This document shows, one piece after another, positions 33,766 through 58,064 of a stretch of 64,000 nt of DNA (its first letter is position 1; each line of letters begins with the position of its first letter). Location: assembly GCA_025999395.1 (NCBI GenBank), contig AP024682.1, forward strand, positions 367,487 through 431,486. The letters run 5' to 3'. The DNA comes from Candidatus Parcubacteria bacterium. GTDB lineage: Bacteria; Patescibacteriota; Minisyncoccia; UBA6257; JAGOQP01. The translations under genes and the position numbers were made by a program. The notes beneath the pieces were generated by a model. It was not told where the DNA came from. It made no database searches and saw only the letters and a list, made by a program, of their open reading frames with translations.

Positions 33766-34170
33766 ATGATAAAATCCAAGTATTTTTGGACTCAGCACGC
33801 TCTCCGGAAAATGAAATTTTATCAACTTTCTGAGAGTCGAGTTCGGCGAGTAATCAAAAGCCCCTTAAGAATAGAGGAGGGGATTGCTTATGGAACCATT
33901 GCGGTGATGCAGCCATCAAGTTATAAGGTGAGAAATAATCAAAAAACTTGGAGTCAGGAAATTTGGGTAATGTATCAAATTGCTAGTCCAAAACCATCGA
34001 TAGATAAAAAAAGTAAAGAAAAAGGGAAAGGACAATCAAAAATTGTTTCTTCGGGTGATAAACTAATAAAGATAATTTCTGCTTGGCGGTATCCGGGAAA
34101 AACTAATCCCGGAAGGAAACTACCTCCCGAAGTAATAAATGAAATTGAAGAAGCCCTAAATAGCTTGTAG
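33766..34170 (+). CDS. hypothetical protein with DUF4258-like N-terminal motif (tentative)
   Basis: TQHALRKMKFYQLSESRVRRVIKSP resembles DUF4258 H-A-x-x-R-M...I-S...V signature. Confidence 0.35.
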   Translation: MIKSKYFWTQHALRKMKFYQLSESRVRRVIKSPLRIEEGIAYGTIAVMQPSSYKVRNNQKTWSQEIWVMYQIASPKPSIDKKSKEKGKGQSKIVSSGDKLIKIISAWRYPGKTNPGRKLPPEVINEIEEALNSL

Positions 34171-35434: not shown

Positions 35435-35605
35435 ATGAAAAGCTATTTTTTGAGATTAAAGATTTTTTTAAAAGAGAGAAAAAAAGAAATACTTCTTATT
35501 ATTTTGGCTTTTTTAATAATTGCTTTGGCTTTTGCTTTGGGCTATTTAACCGGAAGGGATTTTTTGGAAAAAACTCCTATTATTATCAATAAATATTCTT
35601 GTTAA
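35435..35605 (+). CDS. putative 56-aa single-TM peptide (not in ORF track)
   Basis: Hand translation MKSYFLRLKIFLKERKKEILLIILAFLIIALAFALGYLTGRDFLEKTPIIINKYSC. Confidence 0.25.
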   Translation: MKSYFLRLKIFLKERKKEILLIILAFLIIALAFALGYLTGRDFLEKTPIIINKYSC

Positions 35606-35644: not shown

Positions 35645-36427
35645 TTACTCTAAGTAGCCTATTTGTTTTAACCAGTATTCATTTTCCCATTCCCAAAGTT
35701 TTTTGGCTCCTAAGAAAGCTTGATAATCGCTTTTCCAATAAGGAAATTCTTTTAGTTCTATTTCTCCCACTAACTCACTCCATTCATGTTGACAAGCTTC
35801 TGATTTGGTTTTGATGTTTTTATCGTTTGGATCCCAAGCAAGACGAATTTTTTCTCTCCCTCCTTTAGGGCGTAAAGTAGCTCCACATTTAAGACATTTC
35901 TTGTGTTGATCGACTCTTAAAATCCAACGGGTTTGAAGATTGGGAAAATCTTTTTCTAAGGCTGCCATATAAGCGGAAGTTTGAAGATTATAGTCTCGAT
36001 AAATAGATTGGGAAGTTTTAATATCCAAAACTCCGAATTTCCCGTTAATTAAAGCTAAAGCATCAAGAGTTCCCGCGTAGCGCTCTTCAAAATTAATTAT
36101 TCTTTTTTCTACTTGTTCAGGGTCTACTTGAATGCGATTTTGTTCAATAAAATTTAGAAAAGCTTCAATGGCTGGTTTAATAGATTCATCAATAGTAGGG
36201 GATTTACCTGTCAAAATTCCTTCTATAGTTTCGTGAATAAGCGTTCCCTCGGAGGCAGATTTAGCTTTAATATCTTCTCCCTCAGCAAAAGAGTTCATTT
36301 CAGCATAAAACTTATAAAGGGCGGGTTTAGCTTTAATTTCAACGATTTTAGTTACTCGCGGATACCAGACTCCATCTATTTCGTAGCCGGCAACCTCTTT
36401 AAAGTGTTTGACATCAAAATAGTTCAT
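35645..36427 (-). CDS. PD-(D/E)XK nuclease, RecB/Cas4-like (stand-alone)
   Basis: Motifs GTLIHETIE, GTLDAL, VLDIKTS (D-x-K), QTSAYMAAL (QxxxY); Cys cluster CLKCG...C.H. Confidence 0.65.
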   Translation of the reverse strand: MNYFDVKHFKEVAGYEIDGVWYPRVTKIVEIKAKPALYKFYAEMNSFAEGEDIKAKSASEGTLIHETIEGILTGKSPTIDESIKPAIEAFLNFIEQNRIQVDPEQVEKRIINFEERYAGTLDALALINGKFGVLDIKTSQSIYRDYNLQTSAYMAALEKDFPNLQTRWILRVDQHKKCLKCGATLRPKGGREKIRLAWDPNDKNIKTKSEACQHEWSELVGEIELKEFPYWKSDYQAFLGAKKLWEWENEYWLKQIGYLE

Positions 36428-36615
36428 AAGAGTAGATTAAAGGATATTTACTAAAGACTCTGAGGATAGTTTAAAATAGAACCTTAAATAAGTAAAGTTT
36501 TCGCATAAAAAGCATAGTGTTTCAAGCCGGGGAAGAGTAGAAAAAGATTTAATAAAGTGTCGCACAATATACCTTTTATGATATATTATTATTGATTGAG
36601 ACTAAGATAAGGTTT

Positions 36616-36918
36616 TTATTTAAATAGATTAAGAAGCCAATTAAAGATATCGATTAAGATATTAAAAAGAGCTATAAAAAGATTGATGATCAGCTTAAAA
36701 ACAGACAAAAGAAAGTCAACCAATTCCTTACCTATCTTAGTAGAATTAATAAAGAAAAATATCTTCTTAAAGAAAGAAACAATCAAAGAAAAGAGCTCAA
36801 CTAATTTTTCCCATAGATCCTTTTCTTTCAGAAAGTTGACTATAGAGCCCAAGCTCTCTCCCCATTTTTCCAGATTAAAAAGGCTATTTAAATCTGGTTG
36901 TTGAGATGGAAAAGACAT
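36616..36918 (-). CDS. hypothetical small protein with very hydrophobic C-terminal half
   Basis: ORF only; overlapping + strand ORF 36683..36904 also possible; uncertain. Confidence 0.25.
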   Translation of the reverse strand: MSFPSQQPDLNSLFNLEKWGESLGSIVNFLKEKDLWEKLVELFSLIVSFFKKIFFFINSTKIGKELVDFLLSVFKLIINLFIALFNILIDIFNWLLNLFK

Positions 36919-36952
36919 ATCTTTTTAATTATAGCAAATTTTAATAATGAGA

Positions 36953-53662: not shown

Positions 53663-56038
53663 TTATTCTCTTAATCTTAAAAGAATTTCTTTTTCTACAA
53701 TCTCTCTTTCGGTGCCATACTTCAGGAAGGAAATTTCCTTTATTTTTTCTGCTAATTGGTAGTCAGAAGGCGGATAAAGAGGAGTTCTTATATTAAACGG
53801 TTTAGAAGTTTGACCATTGATGAGAATTTTTACACAAGCTCTTAGGTTGTCTAGATTGATTAAATCATTTTGGCTAAATTCTGGTTCGAATTGTTTTACT
53901 AAATATTCAGCATCATCAGCTCCTACTCGAAAAGAAATAATTGAACCAACATTTCCAAAAACCGCGTCCCTGATTTTTTCTGGCAACTGTTTAATATACT
54001 GGTTAGCCACCACCAAGTTTAAGTGAAACTTTCTGGCTTCTGCCAAAATAGAAGCCACCGAATCGGTAGTAAAGTTTTGAAACTCATCAATATAAAGATT
54101 AAAATCTTTTCTTTCTTTATCCGGAACATCAATTCGAGAAAAGGCAGCCATTAAAATTTTTCCAATAATAATCATCCCTAAAAGATTAGCATTAATTTCC
54201 CCTACTCTTCCCTTGGCTAAGTTAATAAGAAAGATTTTCCCTTCATCCATAATCTTGCGGAAGTTAAAGGAAGATTTTACCTGTCCAATAATAGGACGCA
54301 TATAGTCGTTCGCGATAAAATTATTGAATTTTGAAGTAATATAAGGAGTAATATTTGCCAAGGAGGCTTCTCCTCCTACGCGGATGGCTTCTTTTTCCCA
54401 GAAATCGATGACAACGGGATTGTTAATTCTAGCTAACTTTCTTCTTCTAAAAAGATCATCCGAAAAAACTCGCGGCACCTCCATCAGAGTGGCTGGTTCA
54501 TTGACGGCATCTTCCATTAAAAGCAAAAGAGCATTTCTCATATACTGCTCAAACATCGGTCCACCAGTAGCCTTTAAATCATAGAGTTTATCAAAGATGC
54601 TAAGCATTTCATTAACAATAAAAGTCTTTTGTTCCGGTTTATCAAAATCGTATTCCAGCATATTTAATCCAACAGGTTTTTTAACATTTGCCGGATCAAA
54701 ATAAATAACATCATCTATTCTTTGAGGAGGAATTAAAGCAAGCAGTTTTTCCGCTAATTCTCCGTGAGGATCCATTACTGCTACCCCCTTTCCTTTTTGA
54801 ATATCATCCAAAGCCATATTAGTAATTAAAGCTGTCTTTCCGGTGCCGGTTTGCCCGATAATGTAAACATGACGCCTTCTATCTTCTTCGGTTATATAAA
54901 CAGGCTTTATTACTCCATTAAAGACGCTTTCACCAATTTTAGTACCATCTGAAGGAAGATTAGGAGGAGGAGCAACTTCTTTCGATTTTAGCCATTTTAC
55001 TCGCGGAGAAAGAGTGGAGGTGGTGGGAAAATGAAAAACACCAGCTAATTCTTCGGTGTTTAAAATCATTTTTTGACTTTCGTCAAATTCTCTAAAGGAA
55101 AATTGATAAGCTAATTTTTTAAGGTTCTTTACTTTGACAATTTTTATTTTGTTTTTTAAAGGAGCTTCAAATTGAGAAAAAGATCCAGCAATTGCTTCCA
55201 TAATCCTTTCGGTTTGATATTGACTTAAAGAAGAAACCACTACTCGATAATTAATTTCAAACAAAGGTTTAGAAACTTTCTTTTCTAATTCTTTAATAGA
55301 AGTTTCATCAACAATGGAAGGAGAAGATTTCTTCTTTTCCTCCTCTTCAGGATTAATAGCTTCACTAATTTCTTTTAAATCGATTAAACTTTCTGAACTA
55401 ACTTTTTTAAAACTTTCTCCTTTGCGCAATTGATTAATCATTTCAAAAATTGATTTTTTATATGATTCGGCTGCTGGTCTAATAATAAGCTGAATAGCTG
55501 CTCCTTCTCCTACCTGATTTAGTCGAGAAAGTCCGCTTAAAATAGGAGAAAAGGTATCCACTTCACTTTCTAAGTAGGTTCTCAACATTAAGGAGTAATG
55601 TTTATCTTGCTTTAAATAAAAACCAGCCGAATATCCTTGGGGTTGAAAAATATTATACTCAGGAGCCAACTCTACTTGAGAATCTTTGAAAATTCCTTCT
55701 ATTTGCCGACTAACAAAAGAAACATCTTTCTCCGGCACAGCTAAATAAAAATGAATTTCTTCTCCTATATGATGAACCGCTGCCTCAAAAACTACCCCCT
55801 CCTTTATTGCCGAAAAAACATTAAATAGCTGTTCTGAAAGATTAATTTCTTCTTTAAACTTTCCTAGTGAAGTTTCTTTATCAGTAGCTGAAGGAGAAGG
55901 AAGCCTTACCAAAAGAAGTTTTAATCCCAGAGATCTTTTTAATCTCTCTTTTTTAAAAGAAAAAATTCCATAAAGAAAAACCCCCAACGCCAAAAAAGAA
56001 AGAAAGAAAACAGTTATTACTATCAAAAGATCATTCAT
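53663..56038 (-). CDS. membrane-anchored FtsK/HerA-superfamily P-loop ATPase resembling type IV coupling proteins (TraD/VirD4/TrwB) with large novel N-terminal domain
   Basis: N-terminal TM; Walker A RRHVYIIGQTGTGKT then VMDPHGE (T4CP-like DPxGE), Walker B LYIDEFQNF, C-terminal RKFHLNLVVANQYIKQL. Confidence 0.6.
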   Translation of the reverse strand: MNDLLIVITVFFLSFLALGVFLYGIFSFKKERLKRSLGLKLLLVRLPSPSATDKETSLGKFKEEINLSEQLFNVFSAIKEGVVFEAAVHHIGEEIHFYLAVPEKDVSFVSRQIEGIFKDSQVELAPEYNIFQPQGYSAGFYLKQDKHYSLMLRTYLESEVDTFSPILSGLSRLNQVGEGAAIQLIIRPAAESYKKSIFEMINQLRKGESFKKVSSESLIDLKEISEAINPEEEEKKKSSPSIVDETSIKELEKKVSKPLFEINYRVVVSSLSQYQTERIMEAIAGSFSQFEAPLKNKIKIVKVKNLKKLAYQFSFREFDESQKMILNTEELAGVFHFPTTSTLSPRVKWLKSKEVAPPPNLPSDGTKIGESVFNGVIKPVYITEEDRRRHVYIIGQTGTGKTALITNMALDDIQKGKGVAVMDPHGELAEKLLALIPPQRIDDVIYFDPANVKKPVGLNMLEYDFDKPEQKTFIVNEMLSIFDKLYDLKATGGPMFEQYMRNALLLLMEDAVNEPATLMEVPRVFSDDLFRRRKLARINNPVVIDFWEKEAIRVGGEASLANITPYITSKFNNFIANDYMRPIIGQVKSSFNFRKIMDEGKIFLINLAKGRVGEINANLLGMIIIGKILMAAFSRIDVPDKERKDFNLYIDEFQNFTTDSVASILAEARKFHLNLVVANQYIKQLPEKIRDAVFGNVGSIISFRVGADDAEYLVKQFEPEFSQNDLINLDNLRACVKILINGQTSKPFNIRTPLYPPSDYQLAEKIKEISFLKYGTEREIVEKEILLRLRE

Positions 56039-56078: not shown

Positions 56079-56486
56079 TTAAATTAACTCTCTTCTTTTT
56101 AACTCATCAAGCACTTTTTCTACTAAAGCATCGTGATAAAGATCTAAAAGATAAGGGTCATTTTCTTTTAAAGCCAACCTAACTCCGGCACTAATCCCCT
56201 TTTCTAAAGTTATTTCAATCAATTTTTTTACCTTTTCTTTAACATCTTCTTCGGCAGAAAGAGCGTAGCTTGGAAAAACTTCTGATGAAACATTTTGAGG
56301 GATTAAGCTTGGAGATGGCTGAGTTGCTTTGCTTAAGGTAGCGGCTTCTTCTACTTTTTTCTTAACAATTGATTCTATTATTTCTCTTTCGGAGGGCTTT
56401 TCAACAGCATCGAGACGTTGAAGGTTTTCTTTGTATTCTTGAGCAATTTGTTCGTAATTGATATTATGAAGATTGTTATCAGGCAT
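56079..56486 (-). CDS. hypothetical soluble protein immediately upstream of (same strand as) the T4CP-like ATPase
   Basis: ORF with no TM and no recognised motif. Confidence 0.45.
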   Translation of the reverse strand: MPDNNLHNINYEQIAQEYKENLQRLDAVEKPSEREIIESIVKKKVEEAATLSKATQPSPSLIPQNVSSEVFPSYALSAEEDVKEKVKKLIEITLEKGISAGVRLALKENDPYLLDLYHDALVEKVLDELKRRELI

Positions 56487-56504
56487 AATAAAATTTTTAA
56501 AATT

Positions 56505-58064
56505 ATGAATGACTATAAAAAATACTTTTGGCTTGCTTTGGGAGTTATTTTTATTTTAACAGTTTTCTTCCGATTTTACAATTTGGCCACAGTTCCGCCA
56601 GGACTTTACCCAGATGAGGCAATGAATGGCAATAATGCTTTAGAGGCAATAAAAACTGGAAAATTTAAAGTTTTTTATCCAGAAAATAACGGTCGAGAAG
56701 GTCTTTTTATAAACTTTCAAGCTTTGCTCTTAAAAATTTTTCAAAAAAGAGAACCCTGGGTTTTGCGTTCTGCCAGCGCTCTTTTTGGGAGTTTAACAGT
56801 AATTGGAATCTTCTTTCTGATTGTTGAAATTTTAAAAATCAATTCTTGGGAAAAAAACAAATCTTTTTTACTTTTACCCTTTTTAAGCTCTTTTTTAGTA
56901 GCTATAAGTTTTTGGCATATTAACTTTTCCCGCATTGGTTTTCGAGCAATTATGGCGCCGGCTTTTTTGGTATGGTCCATTTATTTTTTGATAAAATCAT
57001 TTAATAGAGAAAAAGAAACTCGCGAAAGAATAATAAATCCTTTTTTGTTAGCTGGCTTAGCCGGCTTTCTTTATGGATTAGGAATGCATTCTTATATTGC
57101 TTATCGTGTTACTCCTCTTTTAATAATTTCTATTTATTTTCTTTATTGGAAATTTAATCCTGAGAGTATCAGTAAAAAAAGAATTTTTTTAAATTTTCTT
57201 ACTTTTACTATTTTTGCTTTGATAGCTTTTGCTCCCTTAGGAATTTATTTTCTAAAAAATCCTGCTGACTTTTTTGGGAGGACTGGCCAACTTTCCATTT
57301 TTTCCTCCCCTACTCCTTTAAAGGATTTGATTGAAAATACTCTTAAAACTTTAGCGATGTTTCATTTTAAAGGGGATGCTAATTGGAGACACAATTATTC
57401 TGGCAGTCCTCAACTTTTTTGGTTAACAGGATTATTCTTTGTTTTGGGAATTTTAAAGGGAATAGCTTGGGTAATTGATAAAAAAACAAAGGAAGTCACT
57501 AGAGATAATCAAAAAAATAATCTAAAATTTATCTTTCTTCTTTCGCTTATTTGGTTGATTTTAGCATTTTTGCCGGTGGTTATTTCTAATGAAGGTATTC
57601 CTCACGCTTTGCGCTCGATTTTAATGATTCCTCCAGTTTTTATTATCTCCGGAATAGGTGGTTTTTATTTTTTTGAGTTTATTTATCGAAAAACAAATAA
57701 AAAAATAACTTATTTAGTTGGAATAATTCTAATGCTGGCGATGATCCTTCAATCTTTTATCTTCTATTTTATTCTTTGGGCAAAAAATCCCAATGTCGCT
57801 GATGCCTTCAGTGTTAGATATTTAGAAATCGGTCGGCAAATAAATGAAATTTCTGAAAAAGTAAAAAAATATGTTGTTGTTAATGCGTCAGGAATAGAAG
57901 TTCGAGGAATTCCTATGCCTGCTCAAATCATAATGTTTATTACTGATTCCTTTAGCTTCGAAGATCAAGAAAAAAAGCAAATCTTTTATATTTCTCCCGA
58001 AAAAGAAAAAGAAGTTGATGAAAATAATTCCTTAATCTTTTATTTAGAGGAAAAAAGAGATTAG
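56505..58064 (+). CDS. GT-C fold glycosyltransferase (GT39/PMT_2/ArnT-like); start taken at MNDYKKYFW to avoid overlap with divergent gene (ORF track starts at TTG 56418)
   Basis: N-terminal TM then RFYNLATVPPGLYPDEAMNG first-loop DE motif; polytopic. Confidence 0.75.
   Translation: MNDYKKYFWLALGVIFILTVFFRFYNLATVPPGLYPDEAMNGNNALEAIKTGKFKVFYPENNGREGLFINFQALLLKIFQKREPWVLRSASALFGSLTVIGIFFLIVEILKINSWEKNKSFLLLPFLSSFLVAISFWHINFSRIGFRAIMAPAFLVWSIYFLIKSFNREKETRERIINPFLLAGLAGFLYGLGMHSYIAYRVTPLLIISIYFLYWKFNPESISKKRIFLNFLTFTIFALIAFAPLGIYFLKNPADFFGRTGQLSIFSSPTPLKDLIENTLKTLAMFHFKGDANWRHNYSGSPQLFWLTGLFFVLGILKGIAWVIDKKTKEVTRDNQKNNLKFIFLLSLIWLILAFLPVVISNEGIPHALRSILMIPPVFIISGIGGFYFFEFIYRKTNKKITYLVGIILMLAMILQSFIFYFILWAKNPNVADAFSVRYLEIGRQINEISEKVKKYVVVNASGIEVRGIPMPAQIIMFITDSFSFEDQEKKQIFYISPEKEKEVDENNSLIFYLEEKRD

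Follow-up and report, generated by a model that had tools for sequence, protein, structure and literature searches.

A strongly conserved MGME1-like RecB-type nuclease with an inserted Cys/His module in a large Parcubacteria clade

The stretch of DNA analysed here (the window) is 64 kb in length and contains, on its minus strand, a gene encoding a protein of 260 amino acids. The features of this gene and its immediate surroundings are as follows (residue numbers refer to the 260-aa protein):

35645..36427, minus strand: complete gene for a probable MGME1-like PD-(D/E)XK exonuclease, 260 aa, ATG start, stop codon at 35645-35647
36344..36385, minus strand: N-terminal beta-hairpin and 'YPRVT' motif, residues 15-28 (YEIDGVWYPRVTKI)
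36212..36325, minus strand: predicted helical region, residues 35-72, putative counterpart of the MGME1 helical arch, ending in GTLIHExxE
36107..36109, minus strand: motif I glutamate E107, matching MGME1 E223
35969..36079, minus strand: catalytic core, residues 117-153, with D122 (motif II), D135-I-K137-T138 (motif III) and Q149...Y153 (motif IV)
35786..35896, minus strand: insertion, a C3H zinc-ribbon-like module, residues 178-214 (CLKC...CQH)
35648..35737, minus strand: C-terminal helix with LWEWEN and terminal Q-h-G-Y-L, residues 231-260
36428..36615, no strand: true upstream intergenic region, 188 bp, from the nuclease start to the stop of the 100-aa ORF
36616..36918, minus strand: gene for a small hydrophobic protein of 100 aa, upstream neighbour, not part of the nuclease
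35435..35605, plus strand: gene for a single-pass membrane protein of 56 aa, convergent downstream neighbour, context only

The nuclease ORF is a genuine gene and not a chance open reading frame. An identical protein is held by NCBI (KatS3mg098_394), and 2,221 homologues were identified at E<=1e-3, the best 120 of which show 68-81% identity over their full length. The gene is carried by at least 466 species genomes, in a clade made up of Wolfebacteria, Jorgensenbacteria, Liptonbacteria, Colwellbacteria, Harrisonbacteria, Wildermuthbacteria and their relatives (Parcubacteria, candidate phyla radiation, CPR). No second copy was found when the window was searched with tblastn. Among the database records listed, the gene is 'hypothetical' or has no name, and nothing relevant was found in the literature on the nuclease family or on CPR DNA-repair inventories.

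The initial annotation had the gene standing in isolation below a 525-bp non-coding stretch (36428-36952), neither of which was borne out. A 100-aa ORF with positional homologues lies inside that stretch, leaving a gap of 188 bp, and the nuclease comes last in a conserved run of genes that share its strand (ftsW-murG-gltX-M23 peptidase-small protein-nuclease), the ftsW-murG-gltX-M23 synteny being conserved in related loci when neighbourhood conservation was checked as had been proposed. An M23 peptidase gene followed by a gene of 89-118 aa occupies the equivalent position in loci L001, L003 and L089, while BLAST with the 100-aa protein gave 21-37% identity in 10 loci and its hydrophobic C-terminal segment is conserved. 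An upstream non-coding RNA or regulatory element was considered and rejected: the upstream region gave no Rfam match at E<=1, the scan yielded 2 promoter-like consensus matches against a mean of 5.4 in shuffled sequence, one lying in the nuclease gene and the other in that of the M23 peptidase and neither in the 188-bp gap, and it detected no terminator-like site.

On the downstream side, 57 of 82 related loci (36 by direct BLAST) have a homologue of the 56-aa gene next to the nuclease and convergent with it, and the pairing persists although the gene preceding the 56-aa one is tyrS in the window and a 3'-5' exonuclease-like gene in other loci. That the nuclease stands alone, with no helicase, cas genes or repeats, was confirmed. 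Neither a CRISPR array nor an annealase gene was present in the 64-kb window, no cas gene or RecB/AddA-size helicase was present among the scanned window ORFs (the longest being at most 791 aa), and no helicase, cas genes or repeats were found beside the nuclease in about 85 related loci. Recurrent neighbours across the 82 loci are housekeeping genes. By tblastn, the window lacks the genes for the RNase_H_2-like exonuclease, murC-like ligase, L27, L9 and CtpA which flank the nuclease in relatives; a functional link to the convergent 3'-5' exonuclease-like or murC-like gene was not supported, as both are missing from the window and the neighbours of distant members differ (greA/iscS/mnmA in one; a P-type ATPase, transporters and small ORFs in another). 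The neighbours of the nuclease offer no functional clue.

The gene is native to the chromosome, since GC content is uniform (about 0.33), synteny is conserved and no copy of the zinc-type nuclease was found on IMG/VR viral contigs; recent horizontal transfer or a prophage was rejected on the same three observations. Median identity in the same loci was 69% for the nuclease, 57% for gltX and 45-48% for murG, ftsW and the M23 peptidase, a comparison that is biased upward because the loci were picked by nuclease similarity. The nuclease is probably a strongly constrained housekeeping enzyme, in a chromosomal context, of one large Parcubacteria clade.

The protein is a nuclease of the RecB-type PD-(D/E)XK class, in which all of motifs I-IV are preserved. 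This class had been assigned in the initial annotation and it holds: all of the motifs named there were found (GTLIHE at residues 61-66, GTLDAL at 119-124, VLDIKTS at 133-139 and QTSAY at 149-153), and the catalytic residues align and are invariant. Invariance of the core catalytic residues extends to 25/25 distant and 29/29 close relatives; in the 29 family members H65, E69, E107, D122, D135, K137, Q149 and Y153 are invariant, as is T138 (the counterpart of MGME1 T254). E107 is invariant in the close-family alignment and almost so in the diverse alignment, and D..(D/E)xK..QxxxY is kept by 108 of 109 full-length cluster representatives. The motifs are spaced E-15-D-13-D-x-K-12-Q-xxx-Y, in which E-15-D-13-D-x-K is as in MGME1 (15 residues separate E107 from D122, and likewise E223 from D238). 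The nuclease also has the restriction-endonuclease-like alpha/beta fold.

The Pfam comparison suggested earlier placed the protein at 21.3 bits (E 2.9e-4) on PDDEXK_1 (PF12705), 0.7 bit short of the gathering cut-off of 22 bits, and at 13.7 bits (E 0.068) on Cas_Cas4 (PF01930), for which the cut-off is 22.7 bits. PDDEXK_1 was matched by 20 of the 29 family members at E<=0.01, one close homologue has a precomputed PF12705 match, and the zinc-less relatives P0141, P0159 and P0164 scored 30-36 bits on this profile, above the Pfam cut-off.

Among characterised proteins the nearest is MGME1 and not Cas4, a relationship which the initial annotation had overlooked. A profile built from the diverse alignment matched MGME1 in the PDB with E 1.4e-14 (profile positions 19-171); it was the sole natural protein at E<=1, the two other matches being de novo designs, and it was also top-ranked in the single-sequence search. 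Identity is 15-20%, with a correspondence (nuclease/MGME1) of D122/D238, D135/D251, K137/K253, T138/T254, Q149/Q271 and Y153/Y275. E107 aligned with the glutamate of MGME1 'LESAV' in the profile match, and GTLIHExxE aligned with MGME1 'GKRFHEALE', pairing H65 with H180 and E69 with E184. In MGME1, H180 is a metal ligand (the roles of H180 and E184 are described in PMC6237815), and the enzyme is an ssDNA-preferring, end-dependent DNase without RNase activity (PMC3597694, PMC6237815). Human MGME1 (mitochondrial genome maintenance exonuclease 1) also appears under the synonyms Ddk1 and C20orf72, with PDB entries 5ZYT, 5ZYU, 5ZYV, 5ZYW and 8XA9.

The resemblance extends to the N-terminal region, where the 'YPRVT' motif has counterparts in YPSVT of phage relatives and, in the profile alignment, IPSVT of MGME1; among distant relatives T26 is invariant and P23 and V25 nearly so. 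Helices are predicted at residues 35-42 and 47-72, and the arch shape which they would form is only putative, because pLDDT is 50-64 over residues 1-50, a range that includes part of the arch. Of the two duplex-unwinding 'pin' aromatics of the MGME1 arch, W152 aligns with the invariant F40, whereas F173 aligns with A58 and so lacks a counterpart.

The Cys cluster seen previously is present (CLKC at residues 178-181, CQH at 212-214) and forms part of a 37-residue insertion carrying C178, C181, C212 and H214. This insertion is missing entirely from the zinc-less phage-type relatives and is absent as a block from about 98 zinc-less relatives in which the catalytic core is kept. C178, C181 and H214 are invariant in the 29 family members, where C212 reaches at least 90% conservation; the pattern CxxC..Cx(1-4)HxW is present in 118 of 120 close homologues. 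The three Cys of the insertion are the only ones in the whole protein, and exactly three Cys occur in 113 of the best 120 homologues. The insertion also bears a conserved basic hairpin, LRPKGGREKIR, which the structural model shows as a beta-hairpin (residues 184-195) flanked by two long strands. When this segment alone was searched against the PDB, its only matches, none of them significant, were to S27e and L40e, ribosomal proteins that contain a zinc ribbon. Judged from sequence, a C3H zinc ribbon is the most likely identity of the inserted Cys/His segment, which would bind zinc, and the basic residues of the hairpin (R186, K188 and K193) probably provide DNA contact or fold stability.

The Cas4 architecture proposed initially was not borne out. 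Cas4, AddB and Dna2 carry a 4Fe-4S cluster whose four Cys join the N-terminal part of the domain to its C-terminal part; in Cas4 one N-terminal and three C-terminal Cys hold this cluster. In the nuclease all three Cys lie in one insertion, and a four-Cys Fe-S cluster is impossible because there are only three and none is N-terminal. The Cas4/Fe-S reading was rejected on the Cys count, the placement of the ligands within one insertion, the profile scores (that for PF01930 being below cut-off) and the context.

In the C-terminal region F238, K242, L244, W245, E246, W247, E248, N249, W252, L253, G257 and Y258 are invariant. Residues 231-255 are helical in the model and the final five are not; these five, Q-[AVLIM]-G-Y-[LIF], form the C-terminal end of almost all homologues.

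Taken together, we interpret the protein as a divalent-metal-dependent, stand-alone RecB-type DNA exonuclease of the MGME1/phage recombination exonuclease branch, and assign a probability of roughly 0.7 to this class and chemistry. A mechanism is proposed because of the residue-for-residue correspondence with MGME1. Two Mg2+ or Mn2+ ions would be bound by H65, D122, D135 and the backbone carbonyl of I136, with E107 giving water-mediated support to the second metal and K137 orienting the attacking water, while Q149, Y153 and T138 would support the active site and the scissile strand. Under the helical region (residues 35-72), a free ssDNA end would be threaded towards the active site. If the mechanism is MGME1-like, the nuclease should therefore need DNA ends, favour ssDNA, overhangs or flaps, and spare RNA.

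The specific cellular role is a more tentative matter, for which housekeeping DNA-end processing is our suggestion. The most plausible job would be 5'-strand resection for RecA-dependent repair or, alternatively, the trimming of flaps and ssDNA tails in replication and repair. The initial annotation, in naming repair, recombination or a phage-type exonuclease, had the general area right; the unrecognised defence function which it also raised is unlikely, because of the very high sequence conservation and the stable chromosomal position.

An unlikely variant of this role would have the C-terminal peptide bind the beta-sliding clamp, making the protein a clamp-tethered, MGME1-like flap- or end-trimming nuclease and an essential, clade-specific replisome accessory. 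The tail, which is predicted to be flexible, may resemble the clamp-binding consensus QL[SD]LF; more distant zinc-type members are without the C-terminal Q-h-G-Y-L motif. Were the clamp reading true, the enzyme would be an analogue of FEN1-PCNA, or of MGME1 with Pol gamma, it might stand in for a Pol I 5'-nuclease, RecJ or RecBCD function that is reduced or absent, and its zinc ribbon would recognise the ss/ds junction.

It is similarly improbable that the enzyme is a salvage nuclease, breaking down linear DNA, such as ssDNA taken up via a ComEC competence channel, to nucleotides. Bacteria of this clade are not known to make nucleotides de novo. End-dependent ssDNA exonuclease chemistry, as predicted here, would suit such a function, the very strong conservation in reduced genomes fits an indispensable metabolic one, and in the related locus L005 a ComEC-like gene is present at a distance of about 4 kb; however, competence genes are not consistently linked to the nuclease in the 82 loci, and the characterised relatives serve genome maintenance or recombination.

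There is little to be expected of a third reading, in which a domesticated or resident prophage recombination exonuclease plays the lambda Exo/RecE role together with a single-strand annealing protein. The best library match is indeed a phage family, PHROG 298 'exonuclease' (E 1.6e-21), the BFVD structural matches are phage exonucleases, phage relatives show 28-32% identity over residues 15-176, and in phage HXX_Dennis the homologous gene lies between an adjacent ERF annealase gene and a nearby SSB gene. MGME1-like proteins and phage exonucleases are moreover grouped in one branch (PMC3597694). Against this, no annealase, SSB or phage gene was found near the nuclease in the window or in related loci, GC content is uniform, at least 466 species share the chromosomal synteny, and the zinc-type protein was not found on viral contigs of IMG/VR. 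It is possible that the whole branch is of ancient phage origin, as history and not as present function. Examples of PHROG 298 include Pseudomonas phage Itty13 gp68 and Xanthomonas phage HXX_Dennis gp46, and the annotations of the phage relatives read 'exonuclease', 'RecE-like' or 'Cas4 family exonuclease'.

Slimmer still is the prospect that the substrate is RNA instead of DNA, as in rRNA/tRNA maturation or decay. The weakest candidate, an orphan Cas4 or other defence nuclease, can be set aside given the Cas4 profile score and the four-Cys cluster that cannot form, the lack of a CRISPR array in the window and of cas neighbours in related loci, a median identity across candidate phyla and a fixed position that are unlike those of defence genes, and the far better match to MGME1. 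PADLOC yielded only weak Cas4 and Csx1 noise, the best Cas4 model spanning just 51 residues (E 3e-4), and a defence system was rejected.

The gene can now be annotated as encoding an MGME1-like DNA exonuclease, which is among the most conserved genes, in the loci compared, of a very large uncultivated and genome-reduced bacterial group. For CPR biology, in which little is known of repair and replication accessories, it offers a specific DNA-end-processing candidate, and the family, so far treated chiefly in the context of mitochondria and phages, gains a free-living bacterial branch that carries a zinc-ribbon insertion.

Compared with known systems, the nuclease is treated as a relative of MGME1 and not as MGME1 itself, because it is encoded on a Parcubacteria chromosome, with bacterial housekeeping genes around it, whereas MGME1 proper is mitochondrially targeted and acts with Pol gamma. 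MGME1 is eukaryotic and without the Cys/His insertion; the bacterial protein has the 37-residue C3H insertion and adds a family-specific N-terminal 'HFK' helix, a Trp-rich C-terminal helix and the conserved terminal peptide. The PHROG 298 exonucleases have the N-terminal motif and catalytic core in common with it, but are of about 200 aa, without the zinc-ribbon insertion and extended C-terminus, and are encoded in phage genomes, while the window gene lies on a chromosome beside housekeeping genes. RecE (E. coli) and lambda Exo are toroidal oligomers acting with annealases; the nuclease has no annealase nearby, its neighbours being the M23 peptidase, small membrane proteins and tyrS. The nuclease domains of RecB, AddA, AdnA and Dna2 are fused to helicase motors, in contrast to this 260-aa single domain, which has no adjacent helicase in the window or related loci and so differs from the RecBCD/AddAB/AdnAB type. 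Cas4 has the same RecB-type core with D, DxK and QxxxY and a stand-alone size of about 200 aa, and differs in its four-Cys layout. The enzyme class, chemistry and fold are already well known, and the nuclease represents a slightly new form of them and not a new category of system.

The nuclease gene was located exactly where the initial annotation had placed it, and every motif quoted there was found in its translation. The features of the gene and of two small neighbouring ORFs were as follows.

Features of the nuclease locus (window coordinates, or residues of the nuclease)
35645..36427, minus strand: nuclease ORF, ATG start, 260 aa
residues 61-66: GTLIHE
residues 119-124: GTLDAL
residues 133-139: VLDIKTS
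residues 149-153: QTSAY
residues 178-181: CLKC
residues 212-214: CQH
36616-36918, minus strand: 100-aa ORF, flanked by the M23 peptidase and nuclease genes
35435-35605, plus strand: 56-aa ORF, single-pass membrane protein, convergent on the nuclease 3' end

The protein is identical to the database entry 'hypothetical protein KatS3mg098_394' from a Candidatus Parcubacteria MAG. A total of 2,221 homologues were identified at E<=1e-3; the best 120 of these shared 68-81% identity along their full length, and every one was annotated as 'hypothetical' or nameless. Approximately 90 columns were invariant in an alignment of 29 family members, including H65, E69, E107, D122, D135, K137, Q149 and Y153, as well as C178, C181, H214 and a C-terminal LWEWEN motif. 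This is a genuine gene under strong purifying selection. It also contains a 21-nt direct repeat (86% identical; window 36254-36274 and 36320-36340) encoding the peptides EIKAKPA (residues 30-36) and DIKAKSA (52-58), which lie in a putative helical-arch region and are both conserved in the family.

The earlier assignment to the RecB-type PD-(D/E)XK nucleases was upheld by the catalytic motifs. Pfam PDDEXK_1 matched the nuclease 0.7 bit below its cut-off (21.3 bits, E 2.9e-4) and 20 of 29 family members at E<=0.01, and more distant relatives passed the cut-off at 30-36 bits. No meaningful match was obtained from NCBIfam, and PHROGs returned family 298, 'exonuclease' (E 1.6e-21). [quoted passage not shown] The AF2 model (mean pLDDT 79.6, pTM 0.75) matched MGME1 in Foldseek (E 2e-7), and its structural matches in BFVD were phage PD-(D/E)XK exonucleases, one labelled MGME1-like. 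On every test the nearest solved relative is MGME1, and the nuclease qualifies as a member of both the RecB-type class and its MGME1-like branch.

In MGME1 the metal ligands are H180, D238, D251 and the W252 backbone, K253 orients water, E223 is a second-shell residue, and motif IV includes Q271 and Y275 (PMC6237815; PMC3597694).

Equivalent residues, nuclease and MGME1
H65: H180
E69: E184
E107: E223
D122: D238
D135: D251
K137: K253
T138: T254
Q149: Q271
Y153: Y275

The spacing E-15-D-13-D-x-K-12-Q-xxx-Y is the same in both proteins, and from this spacing and the residue match two-metal-ion phosphodiester hydrolysis on DNA can be predicted on good grounds.

The nuclease contains only three cysteines, as do 113 of 120 close homologues, and C178, C181, C212 and H214 are confined to one 37-residue segment. 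When 1.84 billion cluster representatives were searched, 3,618 relatives were identified; among 109 full-length representatives the catalytic signature was kept in 108 and the CxxC...CxH pattern in only 10. In an alignment of distant relatives, the insertion and all four ligands occurred together or not at all. In the AF2 model the segment forms a beta-hairpin (184-195), in which the basic residues R186, K188 and K193 are conserved, plus a short helix, between two long strands. Its sole sequence matches in the PDB, both non-significant, were S27e and L40e, ribosomal proteins with a zinc ribbon. We read the segment as a modular C3H zinc ribbon, with zinc as the presumed metal. In the 'iron staple' of Cas4, AddB and Dna2, four cysteines link the two ends of that domain; this arrangement was rejected for the nuclease, given its three cysteines and single ligand-bearing segment. 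The Cas4 architecture initially proposed was likewise not borne out (Cas_Cas4 13.7 bits, cut-off 22.7).

GC content of the window was uniform (near 0.33), and the Rfam scan gave no match beyond two tRNA genes. The scanned ORFs were housekeeping genes (DnaG, sigma-70, AlaRS, alanine racemase, DnaX, TruB, YchF, Dus and a PMT-type glycosyltransferase), and a further run of ORFs is consistent with the ribosomal-protein operon. As initially reported, no cas gene was found among the scanned ORFs and no CRISPR-like repeat in the window. The longest ORF (791 aa, 53663-56038, minus strand) gave only weak TrwB/HerA-type P-loop ATPase matches; the adjoining 548-aa ORF (56418-58064, plus strand) had no Pfam match and overlaps an opposite-strand 135-aa ORF (56079-56486) by 69 bp. 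A 134-aa ORF (33766-34170, plus strand) between the PMT-type glycosyltransferase gene and tyrS also had no Pfam match, with a homologue in one related locus only (L083, 41% identity).

On the minus strand the order is ftsW, murG, gltX, M23 peptidase, the 100-aa ORF, a 188-bp gap and the nuclease, with tyrS and the 56-aa ORF converging from the opposite side. The upstream stretch described as 525 bp of non-coding DNA is mostly coding, since it holds the 100-aa ORF, which has positional homologues (56-118 aa in related genomes) with a conserved hydrophobic C-terminus (K.I..LF..L...ID...W) and probably encodes a genuine small membrane protein.

Scanning one genome per GTDB species placed the nuclease gene in 466 genomes, labelled Wolfebacteria, Jorgensenbacteria, Colwellbacteria, Liptonbacteria, Harrisonbacteria and Paceibacterota, all of the Parcubacteria group. 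Many MAGs labelled 'uncultured Candidatus Saccharibacteria' and a 7.8-kb contig of a 'Spirochaetia bacterium' bin (L050, QYPD01000039.1; a 67%-identical Parcubacteria-type copy) also carry it, likely through bin contamination or generic mislabelling. Among 85 related loci in the BLAST table, genes upstream on the same strand included gltX (66), M23 (50), murG (41) and ftsW (37). After removal of duplicates (82 loci), a murC-like Mur ligase, found nowhere in the window, lay directly upstream on the same strand in 45 (median gap 37 bp; for example L005 4567-5994, L048 2419-3849), and the small membrane protein of the 56-aa ORF was convergent in 57, as it is in the window. The gene upstream of the latter varies, being tyrS in the window and a 3'-5' exonuclease-like gene elsewhere. 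This RNase_H_2/PolB-exonuclease-like gene, absent from the 64-kb window, was convergent downstream in 41 of 82 loci, and L27, L9 and CtpA follow it and the small membrane protein. Its product (230-240 aa; PF13482, PF10108; L001 9039-9737, L003 7092-7787, L005 6968-7690) is a predicted 3'-5' exonuclease, so that two predicted nucleases adjoin in much of the clade. Housekeeping synteny was kept in close loci; the more distant members carrying the insertion (39-43% identity) had other neighbours, greA/iscS/mnmA in one and transporters with small ORFs in another. The nuclease has no fixed functional partner gene.

Median identity to the window proteins was 69% for the nuclease, a figure inflated because the loci (80 best of 466) were ranked by nuclease similarity, compared with 57% for gltX, 48% for murG, 46% for ftsW and 45% for M23 in the same loci. 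Clustering independently points the same way, towards high conservation: at 90% identity there are over 2,200 clusters, and at 50% these merge into some ten full-length clusters of the zinc type.

We propose that the nuclease belongs to the branch of MGME1 and phage Exo, is a stand-alone ssDNA exonuclease that depends on metal and on DNA ends, and carries an additional zinc ribbon; we put this class and chemistry at roughly 70%. Native housekeeping DNA-end processing, by resection or by flap or tail trimming, is a tentative proposal for its cellular role. In nearly all close homologues the C-terminus (residues 254-260, window 35648-35668; unstructured in the AF2 model) ends in Q-[AVLIM]-G-Y-[LIF], which we take to resemble the bacterial beta-clamp-binding pentapeptide. 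Through this putative motif the nuclease could be a clamp-tethered flap or end nuclease; the motif is absent from distant zinc-type members, which weakens this reading.

Nucleotide salvage of imported DNA is an improbable alternative role. Zinc-less phage relatives exist, and the copy of Xanthomonas phage HXX_Dennis, between ERF annealase and SSB genes, is in the classical recombination-exonuclease position; no zinc-type protein was found on IMG/VR viral contigs, and a prophage recombination exonuclease is quite unlikely here. RNA processing is very unlikely. An orphan Cas4 or defence nuclease is scarcely credible, PADLOC having returned weak Cas4 fragments only.

A published study already places MGME1 together with exonucleases of phages and archaea (PMC3597694). 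What is new is an unannotated, unusually conserved chromosomal branch of MGME1-like exonucleases in Parcubacteria, with a zinc-ribbon insertion, a family-specific N-terminal helix and a C-terminal tail. None of the Cas4-specific features tested was found in the nuclease. Its bacterial origin and additional modules distinguish it from MGME1 itself. It would be expected to work like both MGME1 and the phage PD-(D/E)XK exonucleases.
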